64,000 nucleotides of DNA. Source: a virus. A model generated the notes under the pieces. The model saw only the letters and a program-made list of their open reading frames with translations. It ran no database searches and was not told the DNA's origin. The stretch lies in IMG/VR virus record IMGVR_UViG_3300030419_004440, positions 24,939 through 88,938 of that record, one strand, 5' to 3'. The position numbers and the translations under genes are program-made. Of the stretch, positions 24,627 through 47,977 are shown in pieces (within the stretch, counting starts at the first letter, position 1; each line of letters opens with the position of its first letter).

Positions 24627-25375
24627 AGATAATTCACGCAATCTGGATATGGAAGATCTTTGTCTATTTTGTCTGTATACTTTAGTGTGAGTGGGTGTAA
24701 GATGTTTCCACATATGACAGCCCAAGGTATCGGATACTTTGATTTTTCACCTGTCTCTGGAATTACGTGTCCATACGCATCTCTTGCCCATTGGCCCGGA
24801 TGCTTCTTAAGCTCAGGTAGGTAGCCGTCCATTTTTTCTTTTAAGCCATTCCACCAGTCAAGCGTTAGGTCTGTGTTTGGCCTAAAAATAAATCCGCCAT
24901 TTCCTATGAGCTTGTACCAGTTATCTCTTACATGAAACGATGACCATCTACCCTCTTCGTCCAGTGTAAAATCCCTACAAAAAACAGAGTCGTTTGGATC
25001 TAGACGGCAGTTTTCTATTCTTGCAACACCGTCAACTGACGCTTCAGCATATCCTATACCAATTAAGCCTTCGTTGTCAATCATCCTCTGCAAAAAAGGA
25101 CTCCAAGATACTGATGTGTCTTTCACGTCTGCATAGCCGCCTCCAAAATGGTGCATGTAGTAACCCTTGAGGTAGTCCCCCTTTTGAATTGGTGATAGAT
25201 ACTCGTACCCTTCGTGCAATTCTTCTAAAGACTCAATCTCATCGTTGCGAACTAGCCTAACTGAGCAGTCACTATTCTTTTCACAAAAGCCGTCGAAGGC
25301 TCTTTTTCTGGTGTCAGACATGTCATTTTCACCAGTCCAGAACATCCAGATTGTTTTTTCCTTTAAATAGTCCAC
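24623..25375 (-). CDS. GT32-like/capsular polysaccharide synthesis glycosyltransferase
   Basis: IWMFWTG, KGDYLK, HHFGGGYAD. Confidence 0.7.
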   Translation of the reverse strand: MDYLKEKTIWMFWTGENDMSDTRKRAFDGFCEKNSDCSVRLVRNDEIESLEELHEGYEYLSPIQKGDYLKGYYMHHFGGGYADVKDTSVSWSPFLQRMIDNEGLIGIGYAEASVDGVARIENCRLDPNDSVFCRDFTLDEEGRWSSFHVRDNWYKLIGNGGFIFRPNTDLTLDWWNGLKEKMDGYLPELKKHPGQWARDAYGHVIPETGEKSKYPIPWAVICGNILHPLTLKYTDKIDKDLPYPDCVNYL

Positions 25376-35945: not shown

Positions 35946-37621
35946 TGAATAAGACCTCGCTGTTTCATCACTTCTACCCGTTTTTGTTCCCAGACATTCT
36001 TTCTTGTGCACATAGATACCATCTGATCGTACGCAGTGTCAAAATTGAATTCAATTCTATGGTTTATGCCATCAAAAGCCGCTGACGACTCGTTAAAATA
36101 CATACCTCCGGTAGATGAGGTGGCAGACCGATAAAGCAAATCTCTTGTCATCCTAGCTTCAAACCATGTGTTGAGTTTGCTTGGTTCTCCTAAAACATTT
36201 ACAATTAACCATTTTGCAAGATTATTTGTTGAAAGCTGATTAGCATCTTTTGGTTTATCTGCGGGATTGTGGATGCTTGGTGGCGAAGCCCAAGTTTTTT
36301 GAACGGGCTCAAGCTCGATACTGTCAAAATAATCTTCCCACTTTTTACCACTTAAGTGCCACTGAAAGTGTTTTTCAAAATTAGACCTTGTTTTTTTGCC
36401 TATGGATTCCCTTTCTTCTTCAGATAGATCAAAGAATTCTTTAAACATTCTGGAGGCTAAGTCATTATCTGGAACCGCACGCAGGCAGCCAGTCTCTAGT
36501 TCTTTATATAATGCAGCCGGTTTTATTGGGTACCCCTCAAGCTTTCTAACCTCGCTTTCCATGGCTGAATAGTCCGTGGCCATGACCGGAACTCCACAGG
36601 CGGCGGCTTCTACAATTGGAAGACCAAAGCCTTCGCAGTTAGCATATTGAACATAAAGATCAAATAGATTGATTATATCGGATAACTGTTCGTAAGAGGC
36701 TCCATTCTTGACGTTGCTTAAGGTTGATCCCCACTTTCCGGTGTAAGGCGACTGTGCGACCGGACCATTAAAGAGAGATGGAAAAGTTTGCTTAGTTTCT
36801 GGGCATATGTAGGTAAATAAGACGTGAGAGGATAGTCCGTGCTCTTGAATCAACTCTGGTATGTCCCACCCTAAATCTGGATAAGATGTGTGGCAGTAGA
36901 GATAGTATTTCTTATCCTCTGATTGGTCTAGAAATTTTTTAAATGCTTCGAATAAGTCCGGGTAAAGCTTGCGTCTTTGATTACGCATAACCGTTCCTAA
37001 TATTTTATACTCTGGGTCTATTCCTAGAGATTTTTTATGCAAGGCCTTATCTTCTACTGGTTGATATGCCGGGTGTGCTGACGGGGGTGCTGACCCTAGG
37101 TAATTGATTTTACCTCCAGACTGATCTTTGAGAACTTCTCCGGCCCAGTCGGAATAAGTGAGGCAGGCGTCGGCGGACTGATATGTTGCCACCCATTGTC
37201 TAGCTTGGGGTCTAGCGTCTACCGTTGGCATAACAGCCCACTTGAAATAGTCTCTATATGGAGATCTTTCTGCGAATTCAAGCATCCAAAAGTCTCGTAT
37301 ATCGCAAACAATATCCGGCATAAAATCTAAACAGACATGCTCAAATATCCACTCCCCAAATTGGGCAGAGCCGTTAGATTGATAGGCCTGCAACTCTTCT
37401 TCTGAAGCTTTGGGTTCGCATGACTGGTTTGGTACGACACCGTAGTAACCCCAAGGTATGTTGGCGGCTCTGGGGTCATTTCTTTCTCCATAGGAGGACA
37501 TTTCTGCTATTACATACTTGTCAGTACTATGAAGATAGTTCAATATTTCTCTGGTATAAGTAGCATAACCCGTATTTAGAAACGTAGCTTCGCTACAAAA
37601 TAAAATTCTTTTCTTCCTCAT
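35942..37621 (-). CDS. GT4 glycosyltransferase with a C-terminal extension
   Basis: TGYA, RNQRRK, EGFGLPIVEAAACGVP. Confidence 0.88.
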   Translation of the reverse strand: MRKKRILFCSEATFLNTGYATYTREILNYLHSTDKYVIAEMSSYGERNDPRAANIPWGYYGVVPNQSCEPKASEEELQAYQSNGSAQFGEWIFEHVCLDFMPDIVCDIRDFWMLEFAERSPYRDYFKWAVMPTVDARPQARQWVATYQSADACLTYSDWAGEVLKDQSGGKINYLGSAPPSAHPAYQPVEDKALHKKSLGIDPEYKILGTVMRNQRRKLYPDLFEAFKKFLDQSEDKKYYLYCHTSYPDLGWDIPELIQEHGLSSHVLFTYICPETKQTFPSLFNGPVAQSPYTGKWGSTLSNVKNGASYEQLSDIINLFDLYVQYANCEGFGLPIVEAAACGVPVMATDYSAMESEVRKLEGYPIKPAALYKELETGCLRAVPDNDLASRMFKEFFDLSEEERESIGKKTRSNFEKHFQWHLSGKKWEDYFDSIELEPVQKTWASPPSIHNPADKPKDANQLSTNNLAKWLIVNVLGEPSKLNTWFEARMTRDLLYRSATSSTGGMYFNESSAAFDGINHRIEFNFDTAYDQMVSMCTRKNVWEQKRVEVMKQRGLIQ

Positions 37622-37622
37622 G

Positions 37623-37940
37623 TTATTCCTTATCCAGACATCCGAAGTCAAATTGGTTTACTCTAAACGTAATCAGCGTATCCTCTTCAGGCTCCATGTT
37701 CTTTGCTGAAGCGGTAACTGTCATCTTCATGCCAGACTTTCCTAGTTTGGCAATGGTTCTTCCCCCACTATCCCAAGCTCTAAGTCTGAGGAAGGTGGGA
37801 TATCTCTTCTTTTCACCCCTTTTGTTTCTGACGTATTCGTAAACGGTTAGGGTAAACTCGCAATATTCTGCACCGCTATCTTCATCTACGTCAATCTCTG
37901 GGTCACCATATAGGTATCCTGTAAACGTACAGTTGTTCAT
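37623..37940 (-). CDS. ssb: Single-stranded DNA-binding protein (short OB fold)
   Basis: MNNCTFTGYL..DPE, FTLTV, FLRLRAW pattern of bacterial SSB. Confidence 0.75.
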   Translation of the reverse strand: MNNCTFTGYLYGDPEIDVDEDSGAEYCEFTLTVYEYVRNKRGEKKRYPTFLRLRAWDSGGRTIAKLGKSGMKMTVTASAKNMEPEEDTLITFRVNQFDFGCLDKE

Positions 37941-37964
37941 GTATCATTCCTCAAGTTATATTAC

Positions 37965-37993
37965 ATAGTAGTAGCTAAACTACAAAAATCCAA
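37965..37993 (-). promoter_or_regulatory. Sigma70-like promoter TTGGAT-N17-TACTAT
   Basis: Intergenic, upstream of ssb, 17 bp spacer. Confidence 0.5.
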
Positions 37994-38021
37994 AATTTTT
38001 CTCATCTTTTACGAATAAAAA

Positions 38022-39587
38022 TTATATTTCGTGCACCTTACTTACAATGAATGAGTTATCCCTCTCGACCTCTCCGCAAAATAAAAGATTGTTTCCTTCG
38101 TATAGCACATATTGGTATTTTTCTCTTGCCTCTGGAAAAATTACGACGCTATCTAAAGAACAAGTTGTGTCCTCGATGGTAAGAAACGCCATTAGTTTTC
38201 CTTTAGTTTTCCCTCTCTTGACCTTGTATGTGTTCATCCTGTTTATATTGGCTGCTATACATATATCTTTACCTGTTTTGCCGTTAAGAACATCTTTGCA
38301 GTAGGTGTTCGCTGAAGACGTGTCCGAAGATTCTACTTTTGATAACGATATTGGGCAACCTAGGAACTTATTCTCCTGCTCAATGATCCAAGCTGGGTCA
38401 TCGGACAGGTCGTACGGTGGAGATCTAAGCATCTCAACTTCATTAAGTACAATCTGACTTCTATTTGTGTTACTTGTTCCTCCTCCAAGTTTTTTTGTTG
38501 GTGCCAAATCAGCAAAGCAATCTTGTAACGTTTTCCATTTCTTCTTCGGGTAGTTTGTCACAACCCATTTTAATTCAGCTTTTGTAAGCTCTCTGAATAT
38601 TAAGTATTCATACAGAGCCTTGTTTCTTGTTACCCCCGTAGATTTAGTGGAAAAAAAACCGATTGACGCAAGAGCCTTAAACGCTGTTAAGTTTATTTTT
38701 GTTGATAACGTCGTTAAAACATCCATCCAGCTAAACTTTGAAGGGTCTTTTCCGGTCTCTTCAGATGCTTCTAGGATAGCTTTTATAGCCTTGTCTCCGG
38801 TCACACCGGTTAAACCTTTAATGTCTTTAACACCAAAATAAATTCCATCATCTGCTATTCTAAATTTTTTACTATGAGAGGATAGCTTGGGGATTTTTAC
38901 GTCTATGCCAAACAATTTAGCTTCATTTACTAGTTCATAGACTTCTTGGTGTGGATCTTGTTTTTCATTCGAGAAGTATAGATAAGACAGAAAGAATTCC
39001 TTGACGTGATTTGCTTTGTACCAAGCAGACCAATACGAGTCGACGGCATAAGCAACTGCATGTGATTTGTTAAACGAGTATCTTGAGGATTTTTCGATCC
39101 AGCCAAATATCTCAAGGGCTGTATCCTCATCAACGGTTCCAACATTTTTGCAGCCCGCTATGAAATCCTCTTTAATCTTCGCCATAAGGTCTGCTTTTTT
39201 CTTTCCGATAGCCTTACGTAGATCGTCAGCCTTTTTAAGGTCAAACCCCGCTAGCTTTTGTGCTATACGCATGGATTGTTCTTGGTACACTAGAACGCCA
39301 TAGGTTGGCTTTAGTATATCCTCAAGAGACTCATGTAAATAAGAAACCTCTTCAATTTTATGCTTCCTGTCTACAAATCTTTTGGTCATTGATTTTCCAT
39401 CAATAATTGCCTTGAGGCATCCCGGCCTAATTAAGGCTATAAGTGCGGCCAGTTCTTCTATATTCTCTGGCTGTAATTTTTTAGACCAGCTTCTACCAAG
39501 GTTGCTTTCAAGCTGAAAGACCCCCTTAGTCTTCCCCTCTTTAAAAAGCTCCCAAGTTTTTTCATCTTTATAATCAATGTTAGACAT
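38022..39587 (-). CDS. dnaE: DNA polymerase III alpha, C-terminal half (fingers, HhH, OB)
   Basis: GVFQLES, LIRPG, TYGVLVYQEQ, ADDLRKAIGKK, YSFNKSHAVAY, MAFLTIED; start MSNIDY at 39587. Confidence 0.92.
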   Translation of the reverse strand: MSNIDYKDEKTWELFKEGKTKGVFQLESNLGRSWSKKLQPENIEELAALIALIRPGCLKAIIDGKSMTKRFVDRKHKIEEVSYLHESLEDILKPTYGVLVYQEQSMRIAQKLAGFDLKKADDLRKAIGKKKADLMAKIKEDFIAGCKNVGTVDEDTALEIFGWIEKSSRYSFNKSHAVAYAVDSYWSAWYKANHVKEFFLSYLYFSNEKQDPHQEVYELVNEAKLFGIDVKIPKLSSHSKKFRIADDGIYFGVKDIKGLTGVTGDKAIKAILEASEETGKDPSKFSWMDVLTTLSTKINLTAFKALASIGFFSTKSTGVTRNKALYEYLIFRELTKAELKWVVTNYPKKKWKTLQDCFADLAPTKKLGGGTSNTNRSQIVLNEVEMLRSPPYDLSDDPAWIIEQENKFLGCPISLSKVESSDTSSANTYCKDVLNGKTGKDICIAANINRMNTYKVKRGKTKGKLMAFLTIEDTTCSLDSVVIFPEAREKYQYVLYEGNNLLFCGEVERDNSFIVSKVHEI

Positions 39588-40254
39588 ATAGTTTTCCATC
39601 TGCGAAAGCTTTTTCAAATTTCATGTTGCGATAAACTGCCCGTCTGGACTTTTGTAGTTTGATAAAGATATTTGCCGTATCCTTTACGTCTTGCAACGCG
39701 TCGTGTGCGTTTTCTGAAGACAGACCCATACGCTCTCTTAATGAGTCCATACTAATTGATTTAACGGCTGGGTCGCCTTCTGTCCAAAGCCATACGTCGT
39801 CCATAACATCAATTTTATATATCTGGTGGAACAGCTTCTGGCATTGGCGTTTATCGTCCCAAGGGCCGTATTCGTTGCATAGACGGTTGACGATATGCAT
39901 ATCGTACCCTATGATATTAAAGCCTGCTGGGATGGGTGCGAAATAAGGTGTTCCCTTCCAGTTGTATTTGTTAACAAAAGTACAGAATTTTTTCCAAACA
40001 CCTTTTGGCAACGGTGCTTTGGCAAGCTTCGATCTCGTTTGACCAGTCACCTTTAAGGCCCCCTCCTCAATTGGATCGACACCCGCTGCGATTGCTTTAT
40101 CATCGTCTAGGATTGGACGCATCATACTATTGAACTCCCCTTTTAGCTTGAAGTTTCTTCCGTCTAGTGCTATCGCTGCAATCTGTGTCGGCTGACACCT
40201 CATGGGATTTCTGCCGCCTGTTTCAAAGTCAAATACTATGATATCACGATTCAT
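39580..40254 (-). CDS. dnaQ: DEDDh 3'-5' exonuclease (DnaQ/epsilon-like)
   Basis: ExoI DFETGG, ExoII GFNIIGYD, ExoIII HDALQD. Confidence 0.88.
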   Translation of the reverse strand: MNRDIIVFDFETGGRNPMRCQPTQIAAIALDGRNFKLKGEFNSMMRPILDDDKAIAAGVDPIEEGALKVTGQTRSKLAKAPLPKGVWKKFCTFVNKYNWKGTPYFAPIPAGFNIIGYDMHIVNRLCNEYGPWDDKRQCQKLFHQIYKIDVMDDVWLWTEGDPAVKSISMDSLRERMGLSSENAHDALQDVKDTANIFIKLQKSRRAVYRNMKFEKAFADGKLYV

Positions 40255-41873
40255 ACTAACTCCTTAATCATCATTAGTTTATCTAAAAGATTAATGCCTA
40301 AAACATCAAACTTCACATGTCCGAGAGCCTCTAGGTCGGCCATTTCAAGGCCAGCGATTTTTTCTGTTCCGCTTTTAGGGTTAACCATGGGGCAAACTTT
40401 GTACAATTCGTCCGCTGAAATAACTACCCCAGCAGCGTGCTTTCCTTGGGTTTTAAATGTTCCCTCTATATTAATGGCCTGCTTAAAAAATTCCGCATAG
40501 TCACCGTCCAGTTCACCATTGTCATTTATAAAACAATAGTCCCTGAGTTCATCCGCATTATTAATAAGAGACCATCTAATAATTGATCTATCTTCCTCGT
40601 CCATCTCTGCGAGCTGGTCAGATATTGAAGCTTCGTCTGGTATTGATTTGGTAATCTCGTTCATCTCACTAAATCCGCAGGCACCACTCACACGCAAAAC
40701 CTCTTTTAAGGCACTTCTACCCTGTAGCCTTCCGAAGGTTATCATCTGGCTAACATTATTGTTTCCGTATTTATCTTTGAGGTAAGTAATTATTTCGTCA
40801 CGTTTCCCACCCGGAACATCTAGATCAATATCTGGAAGAGATATGTGGTCCTCTGTATTTCTACCGGCATTGTAAAATCTTTCAAAGAGAAGGTCATATT
40901 CAATAGGGTCAATTTGGGTAATTCCGATAAGATATGATATCAGGCACCCAGCCGCAGACCCTCTACCCGGACCCACCATCCACCCTTGTGCGGTGGCATA
41001 TTTTATGATGTCTCTTACAATCAAGAAATATCCAAAGAGTTTGGCCTCTTCAATAACTTTAAACTCTTCCTCGAACCTTTCTCCATAGACCTTTTTCTCT
41101 TCTTGCTTTGTAATTTTGTCTGCAAGAAGTTTTCTCCACCCGTCTCTGGCTAATTCTCTAAGGTAGTTCTTTTGGGAATCTCCGTTAGGTGTTTCAAACC
41201 TCGGAAGTATAGGCTGGCTCAATATGTTGTAGCATTCGCACTTATCGTATATTTCCTTAAAAAGATGAAGTTTGTTGTCGTTGATTATGACTTCACCAAT
41301 TTCGGTTTTATTTTTTAGGTAAAAGTCGTTGGATTCAAAAAACACATGGTTGCTGACATCTTCCCCGTTTTTTATAGATTTGCTGAGTTTTGGCAATGTC
41401 GTTTTCATGCTCGAACACAAAATAATTCTGTGCAGCTCTGCGTCTTCTTTGTTTGTGTAGTAAGTGTCCATGAAAGCTTCGCTTTTTTCATAGAAGTCTT
41501 TCCCCTTGATTGGAGACTGGGATTCACTTGACGCAACTGAAATTAAATTACCAGACTTGGTTATGGCAAGCAATGTATTGGAATCTAAATTTCCGTCGCT
41601 GTCTATAGAAGAGACAAGCTCGATTAGATTAAGCCAGCCATCTTTGTTTTTAGCAAACAGAGAAAATTCGTCAAAAGAGCAGCCAATAATAGGCTTGATA
41701 TTGTTTGCCACACAAGCTTGATAAAAAGAAACGGCACCGGAGATTGACTTATAGTCCGCTATACCGCAAGCTGGGTAAAAATTTTCTGAGCATTTTTTGG
41801 CGAGCTGTTTTGGCTTAGAGAAGCCACGCTGTAATGAGTAATGTGTATAGTTGCAGATTGGGAACCAGTCCAT
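40251..41873 (-). CDS. dnaE: DNA polymerase III alpha, N-terminal half (degenerate PHP, palm, thumb)
   Basis: THYSL, GPGRGSAAG, LLFERF, PDIDLD, GKHAAGVV, KFDVLG. Confidence 0.93.
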   Translation of the reverse strand: MDWFPICNYTHYSLQRGFSKPKQLAKKCSENFYPACGIADYKSISGAVSFYQACVANNIKPIIGCSFDEFSLFAKNKDGWLNLIELVSSIDSDGNLDSNTLLAITKSGNLISVASSESQSPIKGKDFYEKSEAFMDTYYTNKEDAELHRIILCSSMKTTLPKLSKSIKNGEDVSNHVFFESNDFYLKNKTEIGEVIINDNKLHLFKEIYDKCECYNILSQPILPRFETPNGDSQKNYLRELARDGWRKLLADKITKQEEKKVYGERFEEEFKVIEEAKLFGYFLIVRDIIKYATAQGWMVGPGRGSAAGCLISYLIGITQIDPIEYDLLFERFYNAGRNTEDHISLPDIDLDVPGGKRDEIITYLKDKYGNNNVSQMITFGRLQGRSALKEVLRVSGACGFSEMNEITKSIPDEASISDQLAEMDEEDRSIIRWSLINNADELRDYCFINDNGELDGDYAEFFKQAINIEGTFKTQGKHAAGVVISADELYKVCPMVNPKSGTEKIAGLEMADLEALGHVKFDVLGINLLDKLMMIKELV

Positions 41874-41957
41874 TTTCTATCCTTGTTCAACGCAATTAAA
41901 TTCAATGTTTAGGGGTTTTTATATGAGAACCCCTTAACTCAAATGTTTGTGTACTAT

Positions 41958-41985
41958 ATTATAGTCTAAATACTGTTAAAGCCAA
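41958..41985 (-). promoter_or_regulatory. Sigma70-like promoter TTGGCT-N16-TATAAT upstream of dnaE-N
   Basis: Perfect -10 box on the - strand at 41958-41963 in the intergenic gap. Confidence 0.5.
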
Positions 41986-41993
41986 AGGGAAAT

Positions 41994-42662
41994 CTAGAAA
42001 TTTTTAAGCTCTGGGAACAGATCGTATCTAATATTTTCCCACACAGCAGCAGAAATTATCATAGAAGCCTCGTTATCAGAAGGATAATGCACGCCTTGAA
42101 GCATCCTAGCCATACCCGCAGCCGACACCTTAGAAAAAAACTCAGACGAATAATCTGGGTATTTCGCTGAGAGAATATAGGCACCAAGTGCGGCATACGC
42201 CGTATGACCAGAGGGGTAGGCTGGCGTGTGATGAGTACTGGTCTCAGTAACCCTTATTTTAATATCATATATAGGTGCCAACTGGTAAGGTCTAGGTCTA
42301 TTAAATTTATATTTCAAATTTTTAATAACCGGAGATATTATGTCCCAAGCCTTGCCAAACATTTTATAGGGAAACTCCAACCCGTGCTTCTTCAAAATTT
42401 TGTGGTAAAGAAGGTTTGGGTTGGCGTCTACTAGTTTAATTAGGTCTAGCTCAGAGCTGCTTAGATTGCTTGTTAGCTCAGATATGTAGGCTAACTCCTT
42501 TTTGGTGGTCTCGCTACTATTATCTGGAGGGTCAGCGAGAACTTCTTTCCAGCCTATGGTAACGCTTTCGGGTACTCTGAATTCCCTTTTCTCATCGCTA
42601 TATTTAAAGCTGTCTATTTTATCTAGGACAACCTTGTCTAGTTCTTCTATATATTTAGTCAT
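41994..42662 (-). CDS. PAP2/acid phosphatase-haloperoxidase family protein
   Basis: KxxxxRxRP (KYKFNRPRP), YPSGH, RMLQGVHYPSD. Confidence 0.88.
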   Translation of the reverse strand: MTKYIEELDKVVLDKIDSFKYSDEKREFRVPESVTIGWKEVLADPPDNSSETTKKELAYISELTSNLSSSELDLIKLVDANPNLLYHKILKKHGLEFPYKMFGKAWDIISPVIKNLKYKFNRPRPYQLAPIYDIKIRVTETSTHHTPAYPSGHTAYAALGAYILSAKYPDYSSEFFSKVSAAGMARMLQGVHYPSDNEASMIISAAVWENIRYDLFPELKNF

Positions 42663-42957
42663 TGTCTACCAACGCGGGGTTTTGGATTGTTTTTGTTCTG
42701 TCATTCATTTGTTCACATATGGGACACATGGGTTGCTCTCCCGGCTTGTGAAGTCCAATCTGATGATGTGTCATCAGGATGCCTTCCATCATTTTCGTAT
42801 CTCGCATCATTGTTTGTTCCTGTAGAATTTTTATTTCTGGGTGTGGGGCAACAATAACGTTGGGTTTTTTTAGTTCATTAAACATATAAGCACTAAAGCC
42901 CAAGTTACACATACTAAGGGCGAACAGTACATATACTGCACATTTAAAAAATTTCAT
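42655..42957 (-). CDS. Membrane-anchored small protein with a His/Cys motif
   Basis: N-terminal hydrophobic helix; HHQIGLH...CPIC. Confidence 0.55.
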   Translation of the reverse strand: MKFFKCAVYVLFALSMCNLGFSAYMFNELKKPNVIVAPHPEIKILQEQTMMRDTKMMEGILMTHHQIGLHKPGEQPMCPICEQMNDRTKTIQNPALVDND

Positions 42958-42968
42958 CTTGACACCTG

Positions 42969-44183
42969 TTAGGAAAATAGTTCGGAAATTACTTTTCCTG
43001 AATTAGCTATTTTCATAGGTCGTCCGCTATTACTTGAGAAAGTAGTGCTTAACGAAATGCCGAGTGCCTTACAAATCGAGGCCATGACATCTTGGGAGGA
43101 ATAAGGTTCTGTCTCCACTCTGGTGCCATCTTCGTTTGTTGCACCAACGGCGATACCGCCATTCATACCAGCACCACCAACGACAACGCTCCAACTTCGT
43201 GCCCAGTGGTCACGACCGGCGTTTTGGTTGATACGTGGAGTTCGACTAAATTCACCCATCCATATGATAGCTGTGTCCTCCAATAACCCTCTTTGCTCTA
43301 AGTCCTCTACTAACGCACTCATACCTTGATCTAGCATGGGTAACTTTGTATCTCTTAAGGTTGGGAAGATGTTCTGGTGATTGTCCCAGCCCCCTAGTCC
43401 AACTTCTATAAACGGAACACCGACCTCTACTAAACGTCTAGCCATTAGGCACCCCTTACCAAAGCTGTTGTCTCCGTATCTTTCTCTTACATCTTCTGGT
43501 TCGTTTGCTACCTTCATCGCGTCCATCTCTTTACTAGTAAGAACGTTGAAGGTCTTTCTCAATACTTTTTGGTGTTCTTTGGCCAGCGATCCCCTATTAC
43601 TGTTTATAAAATTGGTTTCCATCATATCTAGAACATGTGCCCTTTGATAAAATCTTTGATCTATTTTCATATCTAGATTTCTAATTCTACCGTCGCTATT
43701 GACAGAGAAGGGGTTGTATTGAGCACCTAAAAATCCAGCACCTTGGCTGGGTCCGTTTACGGATACAAATTGTGGAATTAAAAGATCTTGTTTTTCTAGC
43801 TGCTTAGAAATAACCGAGCCATAGCTTGGATGAACCATGCTTGGATTAGGTACATATCCGGTGTGCATATAGTAGCGTCCACGCATATGGTCTGCTTCAC
43901 GGGTGCTCATGCTGCGAATGATTGCCATGTTGTGCATTTGCTTTGCCATTAGTGGCATATGTTCGCAAATCTCTACGTCGCCAGTAGTGCTTATAGGCTT
44001 AAATGGACCTCCGGTTGGGGCGTCTGGTTTTAAATCCCAGATATCCATAGTAGAAGGGCCACCTCCCATCCATAAGAGAATGGCCGACTTCCCATTTTTC
44101 TTTAGCTCTTGTTGGTTGGCTTTTAGCGTTTGCGTCAAAGCAGCAATTCCAGCTAGTGATGATAAAAACTCTCTCCTTTTCAT
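42969..44183 (-). CDS. DUF1501 family protein with Tat signal (paralog A)
   Basis: MKRREFL Tat motif; GGGPSTMDIWDLKP, GGWDNH, GEFSRTP, GRDHW. Confidence 0.9.
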   Translation of the reverse strand: MKRREFLSSLAGIAALTQTLKANQQELKKNGKSAILLWMGGGPSTMDIWDLKPDAPTGGPFKPISTTGDVEICEHMPLMAKQMHNMAIIRSMSTREADHMRGRYYMHTGYVPNPSMVHPSYGSVISKQLEKQDLLIPQFVSVNGPSQGAGFLGAQYNPFSVNSDGRIRNLDMKIDQRFYQRAHVLDMMETNFINSNRGSLAKEHQKVLRKTFNVLTSKEMDAMKVANEPEDVRERYGDNSFGKGCLMARRLVEVGVPFIEVGLGGWDNHQNIFPTLRDTKLPMLDQGMSALVEDLEQRGLLEDTAIIWMGEFSRTPRINQNAGRDHWARSWSVVVGGAGMNGGIAVGATNEDGTRVETEPYSSQDVMASICKALGISLSTTFSSNSGRPMKIANSGKVISELFS

Positions 44184-44485
44184 TCTTCTGTAGCCTTTCC
44201 TATGTAATTTAGGAATACCCCGTCTTTTTTGTAGACACCTTTTCTCCTGTATGTAAATATCTCGCCGGTTTTAGGGTTTTCATACCTGTACCCGCCCTGC
44301 TCTTTTTCCCAAGATAGTTGCAGGTCAGCAGACTCCACATAACTTAATCCTTCAGATGCTTTGCTCATACAGACAGCAGTTCTTTGCTTCTGATCTGGAT
44401 ATTCAGACTTCATTTTATCGCTGCTCATGCAGCGAGACATAAAGTCCTTTGGGTTTTCATTCTTATCCTTAGATGGTAAAGGCAT
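44180..44485 (-). CDS. Conserved phage hypothetical protein
   Basis: MPLP...FMSRCM...YPDQKQRTAVC pattern; AGGAG RBS. Confidence 0.55.
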   Translation of the reverse strand: MPLPSKDKNENPKDFMSRCMSSDKMKSEYPDQKQRTAVCMSKASEGLSYVESADLQLSWEKEQGGYRYENPKTGEIFTYRRKGVYKKDGVFLNYIGKATEE

Positions 44486-44494
44486 TGCTTCTCC

Positions 44495-44887
44495 TTAAAA
44501 TCTGAAGTGAAAAAAGAATCCGCTAAACGGCGTGGGGTATACGGGTACAGGTTGGGGTTGAACAATAACCGGAGGTCCGTAATAATTATAGATCATTGGC
44601 GATCTATACACCCTGTAATAATATGGATGTATGTAATATTGATTGCCAATAATTATTCTATTTTGCCTATGGTTGGGCTGGACCTGCGGCTGTTGCATTT
44701 GTGGCTTTTGCCAATCCTGCTTACCCGGAATCTGAGGTCTTTGCGGAACGCGTTTCTGTCCAGCTAAATTAACCGGAGGTTTAATAACTTTTCTTTGCTG
44801 TGCCACTTGTGCCTGTGCATCACAGGGCTGTGCTAAAACAGCCCCGCAAAGCACTACACAAAAGACTAATGATAAAATTGATTTCAT
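44495..44887 (-). CDS. Secreted low-complexity Gln/Pro/Tyr-rich protein
   Basis: Sec signal MKSILSLVFCVVLCGAVLA; YYGPPVIVQPQPVPVY..FFFHFRF tail. Confidence 0.65.
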   Translation of the reverse strand: MKSILSLVFCVVLCGAVLAQPCDAQAQVAQQRKVIKPPVNLAGQKRVPQRPQIPGKQDWQKPQMQQPQVQPNHRQNRIIIGNQYYIHPYYYRVYRSPMIYNYYGPPVIVQPQPVPVYPTPFSGFFFHFRF

Positions 44888-45270
44888 CGTCTTGGTCCTC
44901 TATGCTCAGGTTTTTTACACTGAGGACATGCTCCGCCTCTTTTAGGATGCATGTGTGGCCCCCTTCTGTGATGAGGATGCTTTCCTCGTGGGTCATGATT
45001 AGGTCTACCTTCTGGCCTACCTTCTGGTCTACCTTGAGGTCTACCTTGAGGTCTACCTTGAGGGGGTCGTTTTGAATCAGCCCACGGCGGTTTGCCTTCG
45101 GGTCTGCGGCGTGAAGATCCACCATAACGACACCCTCTGCATCGTTCTGGCTTGCAGCATTTGCAACCGCAATCGTGTTGAGGTTTTCTCTTATCGGGAC
45201 CGTCTGCAAGCAAAGATGCGGGAGCCGCCAAACATGAGCCTAACATAAATAATACACTTCTTCTATTCAT
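44884..45270 (-). CDS. Tat-signal Cys/His/Arg-rich small protein with GRP(Q/E) repeats
   Basis: MNRRSVLF..ASLLA signal; CGCKCC, CRGC, CPQC; His cluster. Confidence 0.65.
   Translation of the reverse strand: MNRRSVLFMLGSCLAAPASLLADGPDKRKPQHDCGCKCCKPERCRGCRYGGSSRRRPEGKPPWADSKRPPQGRPQGRPQGRPEGRPEGRPNHDPRGKHPHHRRGPHMHPKRGGACPQCKKPEHRGPRR
45002..45063. repeat. 12-bp tandem repeat, about 5 copies (GGTCTACCTTGA/TCT), encoding GRPQ/GRPE
   Basis: Directly visible in the sequence. Confidence 0.9.
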
Positions 45271-45285
45271 AATATTTCCCTTTCG

Positions 45286-46542
45286 TTAAATAATTAAATC
45301 TTGAATGACTTGTCCACCGTCAACAATTTCAATTGGACGATCACCGGGAGCCATTAGCTCTTTATCAGCAACAATACCCAATCTGTTATAGATGGTAGCT
45401 GCCCAGTCCTCTATGCTGACTGGGTTTTGGTCGGGGTCACTAGCGGTTGCGTTGGACGTACCGTAGGTAATACCCCTTTTGATCCCACCGCCAGCCATAA
45501 CAGTACTAAATACCTTTGGCCAGTGGTCTCTTCCTGCGTTAGCGTTGATTTTTGGAGTTCTGCCAAACTCTGAGACGACGCAAACCAATGTGGAATCTAA
45601 TAATCCGCGATCATCCAAGTCTTCGATAAGGGTTGCAAAGCCTTGATCAAAAGCCGGTAGCTGACTTTTCATGCCATTAGATATGTTATCGTGCATATCC
45701 CAGCCGCCGTAGGTGAGTGTTACGAATCTTGTTCCAAACTCTACTAGTCTGCGGGCCAGCAGCATTCTAGCTCCCGCAGTATTTCTTCCATACCTGTCTC
45801 TTAAGGCCGCTGGTTCTTTTTCTATATCAAATGCTTCTCTTGCATTTTGATCTCCTATGAGACTATACGCCCTCTGATAAAAAGAGTTCATAGCGACTAA
45901 AGAATCTGCATCTTCTTTCTTGTTAAATTCAGTGTTCACTATATCTAGAACACGTTGCCTTCTGCTAAATCTTGCGTCTGGAACTGGAACCTTTAAGTCT
46001 CTGACTTCAAAATTTTCGCTAGCGGGGTCGGAGCCTAGTCCGAACCCAGAATATGAACTGCTTAGATATCCAGTACCTGCAAATTCATTAGGCTGGTTTG
46101 GGATGCAGACATACGGAGGAAGGTTTTTACGCGGTCCGAACTCATGTGCAACCACTGAACCCATAGATGGGTATTGAAGGGCTGGGCTAGGTCTATAGCC
46201 AGTAAACATATTGTGTGTACCACGCTCATGGGCTGCTTCTCCGTGTGTCATGCTACGGATAATAGCAATCTTGTCTGTTATCTTCGCAGTTTTACCTAGT
46301 AGCTCTCCAAGACGAATGCCCGGAACATTGGTTTCAATACTACCAAGTGGCCCACGATATTCTAAAGGGGCGAATGGCTTAGGATCAAATGTTTCCTGAT
46401 GAGCCATTCCCCCCGGAAGGTAAATGAAAATAATGCTCTTAGCTGGCCCCTCCTTGCTATCATAATGTTTTTGATCTGCTCTAGCAAGAGACACACCAAG
46501 ACTACCTAAGATTCCAGCTTGTAAAAAAGACCTTCTTTTCAT
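45286..46542 (-). CDS. DUF1501 family protein with Tat signal (paralog B)
   Basis: MKRRSFL start at 46542 with AAGGA RBS; GGMAHQETFDPKP, GGWDMH, SEFGRTP, GRDHWP. Confidence 0.9.
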   Translation of the reverse strand: MKRRSFLQAGILGSLGVSLARADQKHYDSKEGPAKSIIFIYLPGGMAHQETFDPKPFAPLEYRGPLGSIETNVPGIRLGELLGKTAKITDKIAIIRSMTHGEAAHERGTHNMFTGYRPSPALQYPSMGSVVAHEFGPRKNLPPYVCIPNQPNEFAGTGYLSSSYSGFGLGSDPASENFEVRDLKVPVPDARFSRRQRVLDIVNTEFNKKEDADSLVAMNSFYQRAYSLIGDQNAREAFDIEKEPAALRDRYGRNTAGARMLLARRLVEFGTRFVTLTYGGWDMHDNISNGMKSQLPAFDQGFATLIEDLDDRGLLDSTLVCVVSEFGRTPKINANAGRDHWPKVFSTVMAGGGIKRGITYGTSNATASDPDQNPVSIEDWAATIYNRLGIVADKELMAPGDRPIEIVDGGQVIQDLII

Positions 46543-46556
46543 TATTTGTTCCTTGT

Positions 46557-46697
46557 TTAGAATAAAAATCTCGACCACCACCCTTGGGATGCCCCCAAGA
46601 AGTAGAGTCCCACTAAAATACCTCCAACTAAGGCGGTTCGTCTAACCAGCCTATTTTCTCTCACAAAATTAGCAATCGGACCATTAAATAATGGCAT
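46557..46697 (-). CDS. 46-aa single-TM membrane protein, missing from the ORF track
   Basis: GGAGG RBS; translates as MPLFNGPIANFVRENRLVRRTALVGGILVGLYFLGASQGWWSRFLF; fills the gap between two DUF1501 genes. Confidence 0.7.
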   Translation of the reverse strand: MPLFNGPIANFVRENRLVRRTALVGGILVGLYFLGASQGWWSRFLF

Positions 46698-46714
46698 AGT
46701 TACCTCCATTAAAA

Positions 46715-47977
46715 TTAAAGAATTACTTTCGCTTCACCCTCCAACAAATATCTGGGACGACCAGACATGTCGGTACGTTGAATTGCTCCGTCAATTCCAA
46801 AATGGTCAAACAGCGTTGCTTGCAAATCAAGTGGCCCCACTGGGTTTTCTATGGGGCTGTATGATCTATCTGCCTCACCAATCGTTCTTCCTGATTGATA
46901 TCTTCCGCCAGCCATCATCATCGGCGTAATTGCGGGCCAATGGTCACGTCCAGCGTTTGCGTTTATTTTAGTTCTACCAAATTCTCCCGTAACGACCAAG
47001 AGGACTTTTTCATTTAATCCACGATCCCATAAGTCTTGTAGAAACCCCCCTATTGCTTTATCAATGGGTGCGACCCTTTTCTTTAGTGCATCTGAAATAT
47101 TGCTATGCATATCCCATCCGCCATAATGCAGGGTCACAAACTTGGTTCCATGTTCTACCAACCTTCTCGCCAACATCATCTGTTCGCCAATGTCGTTAGC
47201 TTTTTCAGATCCGTAAAGAGCTTTAGTTGCTTCTGACTCTTTATCTGTAGCAAAGGCGTCTTTAGCAGAGCCTAGAATAACATCGTAGGCCTGACCTTTA
47301 TAAAAACCAACTGACTCAGCACTTTTGCCAGATATATCACTAGCGGCTGAACCTAAAGCACTCAGAAGTTGCTTTCTATTGTTGAATCTATCGAGTTGGA
47401 TTCTTGGTGTTAGGTTGTCTTTGTTAGAGGGGTCAAATGGCTTATATGCCCCGCCTAACCAAGCCCCTTCATCTCCCTCAATCTTTCCTTGCTTTACATA
47501 AGATGGCACCCCGTTTTGAGGGTGGTTAGTTCCGTAAACAGCAGATATCAGAGAACCAAAAGAGGGGTATTTGGCAGTAGACGTAGTAGTCCTTTCTGGA
47601 TTATAGTGTCCAGTCATCATAAAGTGAGTGCCCTGCCTGTGAGATGAGTCCTTATGACTAAAGGAATTTACAACATTTAGCTTTGAAGTATGTTTAGAGA
47701 GTTCGTACCAATCTTCCCCTAGCGTAATATTTGTTTTGGGGTCGTGCTTGGCACCATTTACTGGTTGCCACTCTGTTGGGACAGTGTCTTTTGGGGCATG
47801 AAAAGTTTCAAATTGTGTTGGACCTCCCCCAAGCCACACCCAAACAACTGATTTATCGCCGTAACTTTGTACTGTATTTGCAGCGAAAGCGGCGTCAGAC
47901 AGACCAGCGGCGGTCATTCCTGCTCCAATAGATCCAATCCTAAGAAAATCCCTTCTGTTAAAGTAAAAATCTAACAA
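46715..47977 (-). CDS. DUF1501 family protein with Tat signal (paralog C)
   Basis: NRRDFL..AAFA signal; GGGPTQFETF, GGWDMH, GEFGRT, GRDHWP; TTG start with GGAG RBS. Confidence 0.9.
   Translation of the reverse strand: MLDFYFNRRDFLRIGSIGAGMTAAGLSDAAFAANTVQSYGDKSVVWVWLGGGPTQFETFHAPKDTVPTEWQPVNGAKHDPKTNITLGEDWYELSKHTSKLNVVNSFSHKDSSHRQGTHFMMTGHYNPERTTTSTAKYPSFGSLISAVYGTNHPQNGVPSYVKQGKIEGDEGAWLGGAYKPFDPSNKDNLTPRIQLDRFNNRKQLLSALGSAASDISGKSAESVGFYKGQAYDVILGSAKDAFATDKESEATKALYGSEKANDIGEQMMLARRLVEHGTKFVTLHYGGWDMHSNISDALKKRVAPIDKAIGGFLQDLWDRGLNEKVLLVVTGEFGRTKINANAGRDHWPAITPMMMAGGRYQSGRTIGEADRSYSPIENPVGPLDLQATLFDHFGIDGAIQRTDMSGRPRYLLEGEAKVIL

Follow-up and report, generated by a model that had tools for sequence, protein, structure and literature searches.

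A phage DNA polymerase III alpha encoded as two chains, with a DEDDh exonuclease gene nested in the break

Introduction

Must the alpha subunit of a bacterial-type DNA polymerase III (Pol III) be a single chain? To our knowledge, alpha is regarded as an obligate single chain unless an intein re-ligates its parts. The question is raised by a locus of an uncultured marine phage in which a C-family polymerase (bacterial-type Pol III alpha) is encoded in pieces, with a gene for a DEDDh 3'-5' exonuclease (exo) between the genes for its N-terminal part (dnaE-N, protein N) and its C-terminal part (dnaE-C, protein C). The locus lies in a stretch of 64,000 nucleotides, here called the window, which is the 3' 64 kb of the 88.9-kb IMG/VR virus record IMGVR_UViG_3300030419_004440 (positions 24,939 to 88,938; completeness ~53% by CheckV). 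A preliminary description of the window, made from its letters, had proposed an intein-less split of dnaE at the palm/fingers junction. Here we show that this split is real and occurs at the same site in a large group of viral loci, and we argue that the pieces likely act together as separate chains.

Results

The polymerase gene is interrupted by a complete exonuclease gene

The three open reading frames (ORFs) and their junctions are as follows:

40251-41873, minus strand: dnaE-N, 540 aa; degenerate PHP, palm and thumb of Pol III alpha
39580-40254, minus strand: DEDDh 3'-5' exonuclease (exo), 224 aa
38022-39587, minus strand: dnaE-C, 521 aa from ATG; fingers, helix-hairpin-helix (HhH) region and C-terminal OB-like part
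40251-40254, minus strand: N/exo overlap ATGA; the dnaE-N stop TGA overlaps the exo start ATG
40260-40265, minus strand: Shine-Dalgarno (SD) sequence AAGGAG, 5 nt before the exo ATG, within the end of dnaE-N
39580-39587, minus strand: exo/C overlap ATGTCTAA, 8 nt; the dnaE-C ATG (39585-39587) overlaps the exo TAA (39580-39582)

As the preliminary description had it, the exonuclease gene overlaps both halves; it occupies the entire interval between them, leaving 0 non-coding bases. Its frame is closed by a TAA four codons ahead of its ATG, and N and C happen to be in the same reading frame in the window. No SD sequence was found for dnaE-C at the ATGTCTAA junction. Alternative in-frame starts of dnaE-C are present at 39599 (ATG) and 39617 (TTG), and alignments with its relatives begin at C residues 1-6.

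Pfam profiles identified a partial PHP domain (residues 10-94, E 4.7e-15) and a full DNA_pol3_alpha domain (residues 237-526) in dnaE-N, RNase_T/DEDDh in the middle ORF, and DNA_pol3_finger from profile position 21 (171 bits) in dnaE-C. HHH_6 scored 24.3 bits in dnaE-C, slightly below the cut-off of 25.6, and the OB region weakly matched residues 983-1058 of Escherichia coli alpha. PHROG 405, a full-length phage DnaE profile of 1190 positions, was matched by N up to position 612 and by C from position 622, and the halves are therefore collinear. D348, D350, and D523 of N align with D401, D403, and D555 of E. coli alpha, and this triad is kept in all 134 aligned polymerases, split and contiguous alike. 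The codons are:

40830-40832, minus strand: D348
40824-40826, minus strand: D350
40305-40307, minus strand: D523

N ends 17 residues past the third catalytic aspartate, at about E. coli residue 572, and C starts at about residue 589. According to the alignment with contiguous relatives, the segment absent between the halves is a variable linker, and 0 conserved residues were lost. In P0002, a contiguous relative modelled with AlphaFold2 (predicted local distance difference test score, pLDDT, of 92), the break maps to a 12-residue coil (531-542) between helices 521-530 and 543-550. This is the palm/fingers boundary, between the helix after the third catalytic aspartate and the first finger helix, where the preliminary description had placed it. 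Measured against what defines a C-family polymerase of the DnaE type, the window has the palm aspartate triad as well as fingers, HhH and OB regions, and it lacks the set of nine PHP ligands and the single polypeptide.

The stops are real and the split is widespread

It was a priori possible that the stops were assembly artefacts or that the polymerase was a decaying pseudogene, and in one relative (L242) exo itself is in two ORFs. Contigs from three other marine metagenome studies span both junctions with 0-1 differences, and the junctions are identical:

39405-39684: X2 record 10, covering the exo/C junction ATGTCTAA
40070-40311: X3 record 17, covering the N/exo junction ATGA
40190-40525: X4 record 19, covering the N/exo junction ATGA

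As these contigs match, assembly error is excluded and both stops are genuine. Moreover, about 200 independent loci share stops at this site, and no catalytic residue has been lost. In N, exo, and C, synonymous sites are saturated even in comparison with the nearest relatives (proportion of synonymous differences, pS, 0.76-0.98), and nonsynonymous divergence (dN) in close relatives is far lower, at 0.03-0.05 in exo and 0.08-0.20 in N and C. These substitution patterns argue for strong, long-standing purifying selection on all three genes. The frameshifts or pseudogenization that could have undone the preliminary description were thus not borne out, and we regard artefact or decay as refuted. 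The identity of exo, 95% in comparisons in which N and C reach 72-78%, could point to a recent horizontal spread of this gene; we rejected this, as its synonymous sites have come to the same saturation as in N and C.

Four IMG/VR scans yielded 240 loci, which were deduplicated for counts. The survey for the same split point that the preliminary description had suggested found the complete N-exo-C arrangement in 182 non-redundant viral loci, with 17 further cut loci consistent with it and no fused versions. Exo identity to the window ranges from 96% down to 31% across the N-exo-C loci. None of the GenBank phage records had the N-exo-C layout, a search of GenBank phages with an exo of the far clade gave no match, and in Bacteroides, Chryseobacterium, and Rctr197k phages, homologues of exo occur without dnaE on either side. 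Our literature search found no paper describing an N-exo-C split of Pol III.

Contiguous relatives also exist. P0002-P0035 are single ORFs of 1052-1151 aa; a scan of viral contigs with P0002 alone gave no match, and a metagenome scan with P0031 found relatives at 28-33% identity only. In L084, L085, and L166, dnaE is contiguous at the site and exo lies immediately upstream. In the more distant L091 (7998-13755), dnaE is contiguous through residue 878 and so unbroken at the palm/fingers site.

Several loci deviate in other ways. Downstream of its contiguous part, L091 has a small ORF resembling the S1 family described below, several small genes and exo, followed by a gene of its own (175 aa) for the OB domain; this is a different split with exo again between polymerase pieces. 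In L176 (5992-13880) and also in L177, dnaE-N is followed by more than 6 kb of unrelated genes, and neither exo nor dnaE-C lies within reach; the halves may be unlinked in some genomes. The two ORFs of exo in L242 (8035-8716) cover residues 1-53 and 81-217 and may reflect a sequencing error, an insertion or decay. In L003 (3893-8091; Bacillus phage vB_BceM_WH1), the annotation divides dnaE into three pieces; the gaps between them (725 and 400 nt) are non-coding and probably contain introns. This represents another mode of phage dnaE interruption.

The junctions vary among relatives

The junctions were compared in 149 non-redundant loci. N and exo overlap in 57 of these, a spacer of 100-250 nt separates them in 70, and an SD-like motif precedes exo in 113. 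The translational coupling that the preliminary description had proposed is therefore a reading that fits the overlapping stops and starts of the window, probably holds in its subclade and is no general rule.

The 100-250 nt spacer contains a small conserved ORF of one of two families, found in most clades. S1 has 71-80 aa, occurs in 87 loci and carries a motif like YQVHS...IDDAVDKF, and S2 has 57-65 aa, occurs in 50 loci and carries a VSCC motif. Examples, in addition to 130+ other loci, are:

L095, 7423-7650: small ORF
L072, 4774-4995: small ORF
L216, 7881-8060: small ORF

Neither family matched Pfam, PHROGs or Atlas. The small ORF is absent from the window's 69-member subclade and from contiguous loci. 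The S1 and S2 proteins could be a fourth subunit.

Many relatives have spacers of 100-3000 nt that contain other genes. The larger gaps hold genes for HNH, EndoVII, NaeI-like, Vsr-like, and other endonuclease-like proteins. Free-standing examples, of the types HNH_3, EndoVII, NaeI-like, Vsr-like, and TnsA/endoI-like, lie at N|exo, at exo|C or at further breaks:

L040, 5639-6142: endonuclease-like gene
L011, 5635-6036: endonuclease-like gene
L017, 5642-6190: endonuclease-like gene
L043, 6480-7400: endonuclease-like gene
L070, 2000-2845: endonuclease-like gene

These gene orders indicate that the internal junctions serve as landing sites for homing endonucleases. In the gap of the window itself, a homing endonuclease is absent and the DEDDh exonuclease is the only gene.

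The halves show no sign of being rejoined

In principle, the halves could be rejoined by a cryptic intein, an exo-carrying intron, ribosomal bypass or frameshifting, which would result in a contiguous or exo-fused polymerase. The common frame of N and C in the window would fit this, and other breaks of dnaE in relatives do use split inteins: the gene is interrupted in this way in L043 (5632-6474, 7358-8524), L070 (721-1968), and L085 (7959-9455) at two sites, P0002 positions 301/302 and 708/709 (the latter is FNKSH), where Vsr-like or TnsA-like endonuclease genes are also found, and L051 (5673-8030) has a true contiguous intein containing HNH. These four loci served as positive controls, as the scan that detected their intein parts found no match to a Hint/intein domain in N or C of the window, in agreement with the absence of intein signatures noted in the preliminary description. 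As N ends and C starts within the alpha linker, there are also no extra residues for intein halves. Rfam gave no match at E <= 1, introns included, in 37500-42200. Exo fills the interval, overlaps both neighbours and has a frame closed upstream, and the relative frames of N, exo, and C vary among relatives, many of which have the gene-containing spacers described above.

Fused proteins were likewise not found. Apart from one chimera, no protein of 393-2000 aa carried this exo, and the best 150 of 588 exo matches in a set of 1.84 billion representative proteins all had 75-282 aa. The chimera, P0001, has 430 aa on a 1.8-kb contig and joins an N-terminal aminotransferase-like part to an exo that is shortened by ~30 residues at its start; most likely, the contig is chimeric. 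Taken together, we consider a rejoining of the halves highly improbable, and the idea of the preliminary description that the locus is a relic of, or a route to, a fused N-exo-C polymerase finds no support.

The exonuclease is a generic DEDDh enzyme that follows the polymerase

The residues D9, E11, D118, H184, and D189 of exo are invariant in 56 exonucleases, down to 32% identity, and the predicted model is confident (pLDDT 93). The best sequence match in the PDB is a PolC exonuclease (E 1e-4), followed by ExoI. Foldseek returned DinG, ExoI, RNase T, and a DnaQ domain with similar TM-scores of 0.62-0.70. Based on sequence and predicted fold, exo is a generic DEDDh enzyme, a role in proofreading being suggested by synteny, and the label dnaQ used in the preliminary description exceeds this evidence. 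Past the catalytic domain, exo has a C-terminal tail with a KFxxxF motif that is conserved into the far clade. Together with synteny, this tail suggests polymerase binding and removal of misincorporated 3' ends, and it is a candidate docking peptide. It was rejected as a clamp-binding motif, since KFEKAF does not fit the pattern of QTSMAF.

As exo is generic by fold and sequence, its gene could instead simply have settled in the intergenic site created by the split, whether it encodes a nuclease that acts independently in repair or recombination or was once mobile. It would fit this explanation that the same junctions accept unrelated homing endonuclease genes and that some relatives have more than 6 kb of unrelated genes after N. 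However, exo stays beside dnaE through the clade, even directly upstream of it in the contiguous loci L084, L085, and L166. The exo tree is congruent with the DnaE tree, and in split lineages exo is better conserved than either N or C. Members of PHROG 192 are annotated as polymerase exonuclease subunits, and the PHP domain, as the other potential proofreading site, is dead in the window phage. We therefore consider an independent nuclease rather improbable and prefer exo as a partner of the polymerase.

Loss of the PHP ligands is independent of the split

The preliminary description had noted a loss of PHP metal ligands and linked it to outsourced proofreading. Scored against the canonical HHDHEHHDH, the window PHP reads CYRYSESDY, with 1 of 9 metal ligands kept, and the loss is thus real. 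The PHP domain of E. coli alpha is likewise degenerate, so that ligand loss does not bar membership in DnaE. As all nine ligands are kept in 9 split relatives and ligands are lost in 5 contiguous relatives, the loss is independent of the split, and we rejected it as a counterpart of the latter.

The split state has changed during evolution

Trees of 134, 61, and 44 sequences, like those built from N or C alone, place the contiguous clades within groups of split lineages, and the deepest fork of the phage clade has split forms on either side. An approximately unbiased (AU) test with 25 rows under LG+G4 rejected a single split clade (log-likelihood difference, delta lnL, 88; p 0.00185). The nested clades and this test indicate that, as far as the phylogenies tell, the fission/fusion state has changed at least two to four times. 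As neither the site nor the inserted gene ever differs, we favour one old split with later re-fusions.

The exonucleases encoded upstream of contiguous dnaE fall into the expected clade with roughly ten-fold longer branches, and where dnaE is contiguous, which so far means one to two lineages, exo and the polymerase evolve at the same rate. It is conceivable, though we consider it unlikely, that the replicase was repeatedly split and rejoined and that exo acts as a keystone stapling the polymerase halves in the split state. Such a keystone would explain the position of exo in the break, its top conservation in split lineages and its polymerase-like rate in contiguous ones.

Genomic context in the window

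The following features flank the locus:

41958-41985, minus strand: weak promoter-like site upstream of dnaE-N, within the 120-nt gap (TTGGCT, 16 nt, TATAAT)
37623-37940, minus strand: ssb, next gene downstream of dnaE-C; replication module context

A scan for promoters and terminators gave a number of sites not above that in shuffled sequences. The upstream context includes genes for ribonucleotide reductase, PhoH, a UvsX-like protein, DnaB, primase, a deoxynucleoside monophosphate kinase, and a Cas4-like nuclease. Directly upstream of dnaE-N, the region 41994-47977 contains a gene for a PAP2 phosphatase (Pfam) and an ORF of ~404 aa with an N-terminal RR motif.

Discussion

From the gene structure, the conservation and selection of all three genes and the absence of splicing or fusion, we infer that N, C, and exo are separately translated, and we consider it likely that these three chains form a non-covalent complex resembling the Pol III core. 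N would contribute an inactive PHP remnant, the palm with the three catalytic aspartates and the thumb, and C would contribute the fingers, the HhH/clamp-binding region and the OB part. Because the break sits in a coil linker, the two halves could pack as in contiguous alpha. Exo most likely would supply proofreading, as the PHP site is dead in the window phage, and probably would dock via its conserved C-terminal tail. In the window, one mRNA would carry all three ORFs; ribosomes ending N would start exo at ATGA, aided by AAGGAG, and ribosomes ending exo would restart on C at ATGTCTAA without an SD sequence.

Some points weigh against this assembly. Exo shows no specific tie to epsilon, neither by sequence nor by fold. 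The coupling of N and exo is not conserved across the family. No RNA run was found that contains the window stretch. Finally, the 89-kb record is only ~53% complete, so that a further polymerase, clamp or clamp loader may sit elsewhere in the genome. In the record itself, PolA, PolB, the beta clamp, and the clamp loader had no Pfam match, and the absence of PolA and PolB speaks for the assembly.

Split replicases without inteins are known from another polymerase family. The gp43 pieces 43A and 43B of the T4-related Aeromonas phages 25 and 44RR and the NrdA of phage Aeh1 are encoded by two cistrons without an intein, and the pieces co-purify and are active, as found for the split PolB 43A/43B of phage 25 (Edgell et al. 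2010, PMC2988022). By analogy, 43A/43B is a precedent for an intein-less split replicase. In those systems, as in relatives of the window, homing endonuclease genes are associated with the break. However, gp43 is a family B and not a family C polymerase, and its two cistrons have an untranslated spacer or a homing endonuclease gene between them (PMC2988022) rather than the gene of a functional partner. Furthermore, the gp43-type split is confined to few phages (PMC2988022), whereas the split in the window is ancient and found in ~200 loci.

Cyanobacterial split DnaE also consists of two dnaE genes (Wu 1998, Caspi 2003, cited in PMC2677866). In the account of it given there, the halves differ from those of the window in that they carry intein parts, are trans-spliced and lie at separate loci, and the split site is in the fingers (FNKSH); this site is ~190 residues downstream of the window break. 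The "fractured genes" of marine metagenomes are conserved replication genes, dnaE among them, that come in two parts separated by a free-standing gene (Dassa et al. 2009, PMC2677866), and the relatives L043, L070, and L085 show this pattern at other dnaE positions. The palm/fingers break differs from it by the lack of intein halves and by an insert that is a DEDDh exonuclease and not a homing endonuclease, although one intein-less fractured case, SbcD-like, has been reported (PMC2677866). Group 2.2 jumbo phages encode a minimal Pol III alpha as two standalone proteins, the reassembly of which was predicted by the authors (Iyer et al. 2021, PMC7824862). This version differs in being without PHP, fingers extensions and OB, in its distant genes, in accompanying a PolB, and in having no nested exonuclease (PMC7824862).

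The pairing of a C-family polymerase with a DEDDh proofreader resembles the E. coli Pol III core (alpha, epsilon, and theta) and PolC. As in this core, there is a small third gene in most relatives, where it adjoins exo; the small proteins match no known family. However, alpha is one chain in E. coli Pol III and PolC, the PolC exonuclease is fused inside the PHP domain, and no closer relation of the window exo to epsilon than to other DEDDh enzymes was detected. The contiguous DnaE of the sister phages (P0002-P0035; L084, L166) shares the domain order and, over the N half, 43-55% identity; it differs in being one ORF, with exo in L084 and L166 immediately upstream rather than inside.

Automatic annotation pipelines will label such polymerases truncated or pseudogenes. 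The break point is naturally validated and thus could be used for engineered split C-family polymerases, and the locus offers a natural system for studying polymerase domain assembly and proofreader docking. It also represents an essential gene whose fission/fusion state has changed several times. In the likely case that the three chains assemble, a large, globally distributed phage group would run Pol III alpha as two chains, with the gene of the proofreader nested in the cut.

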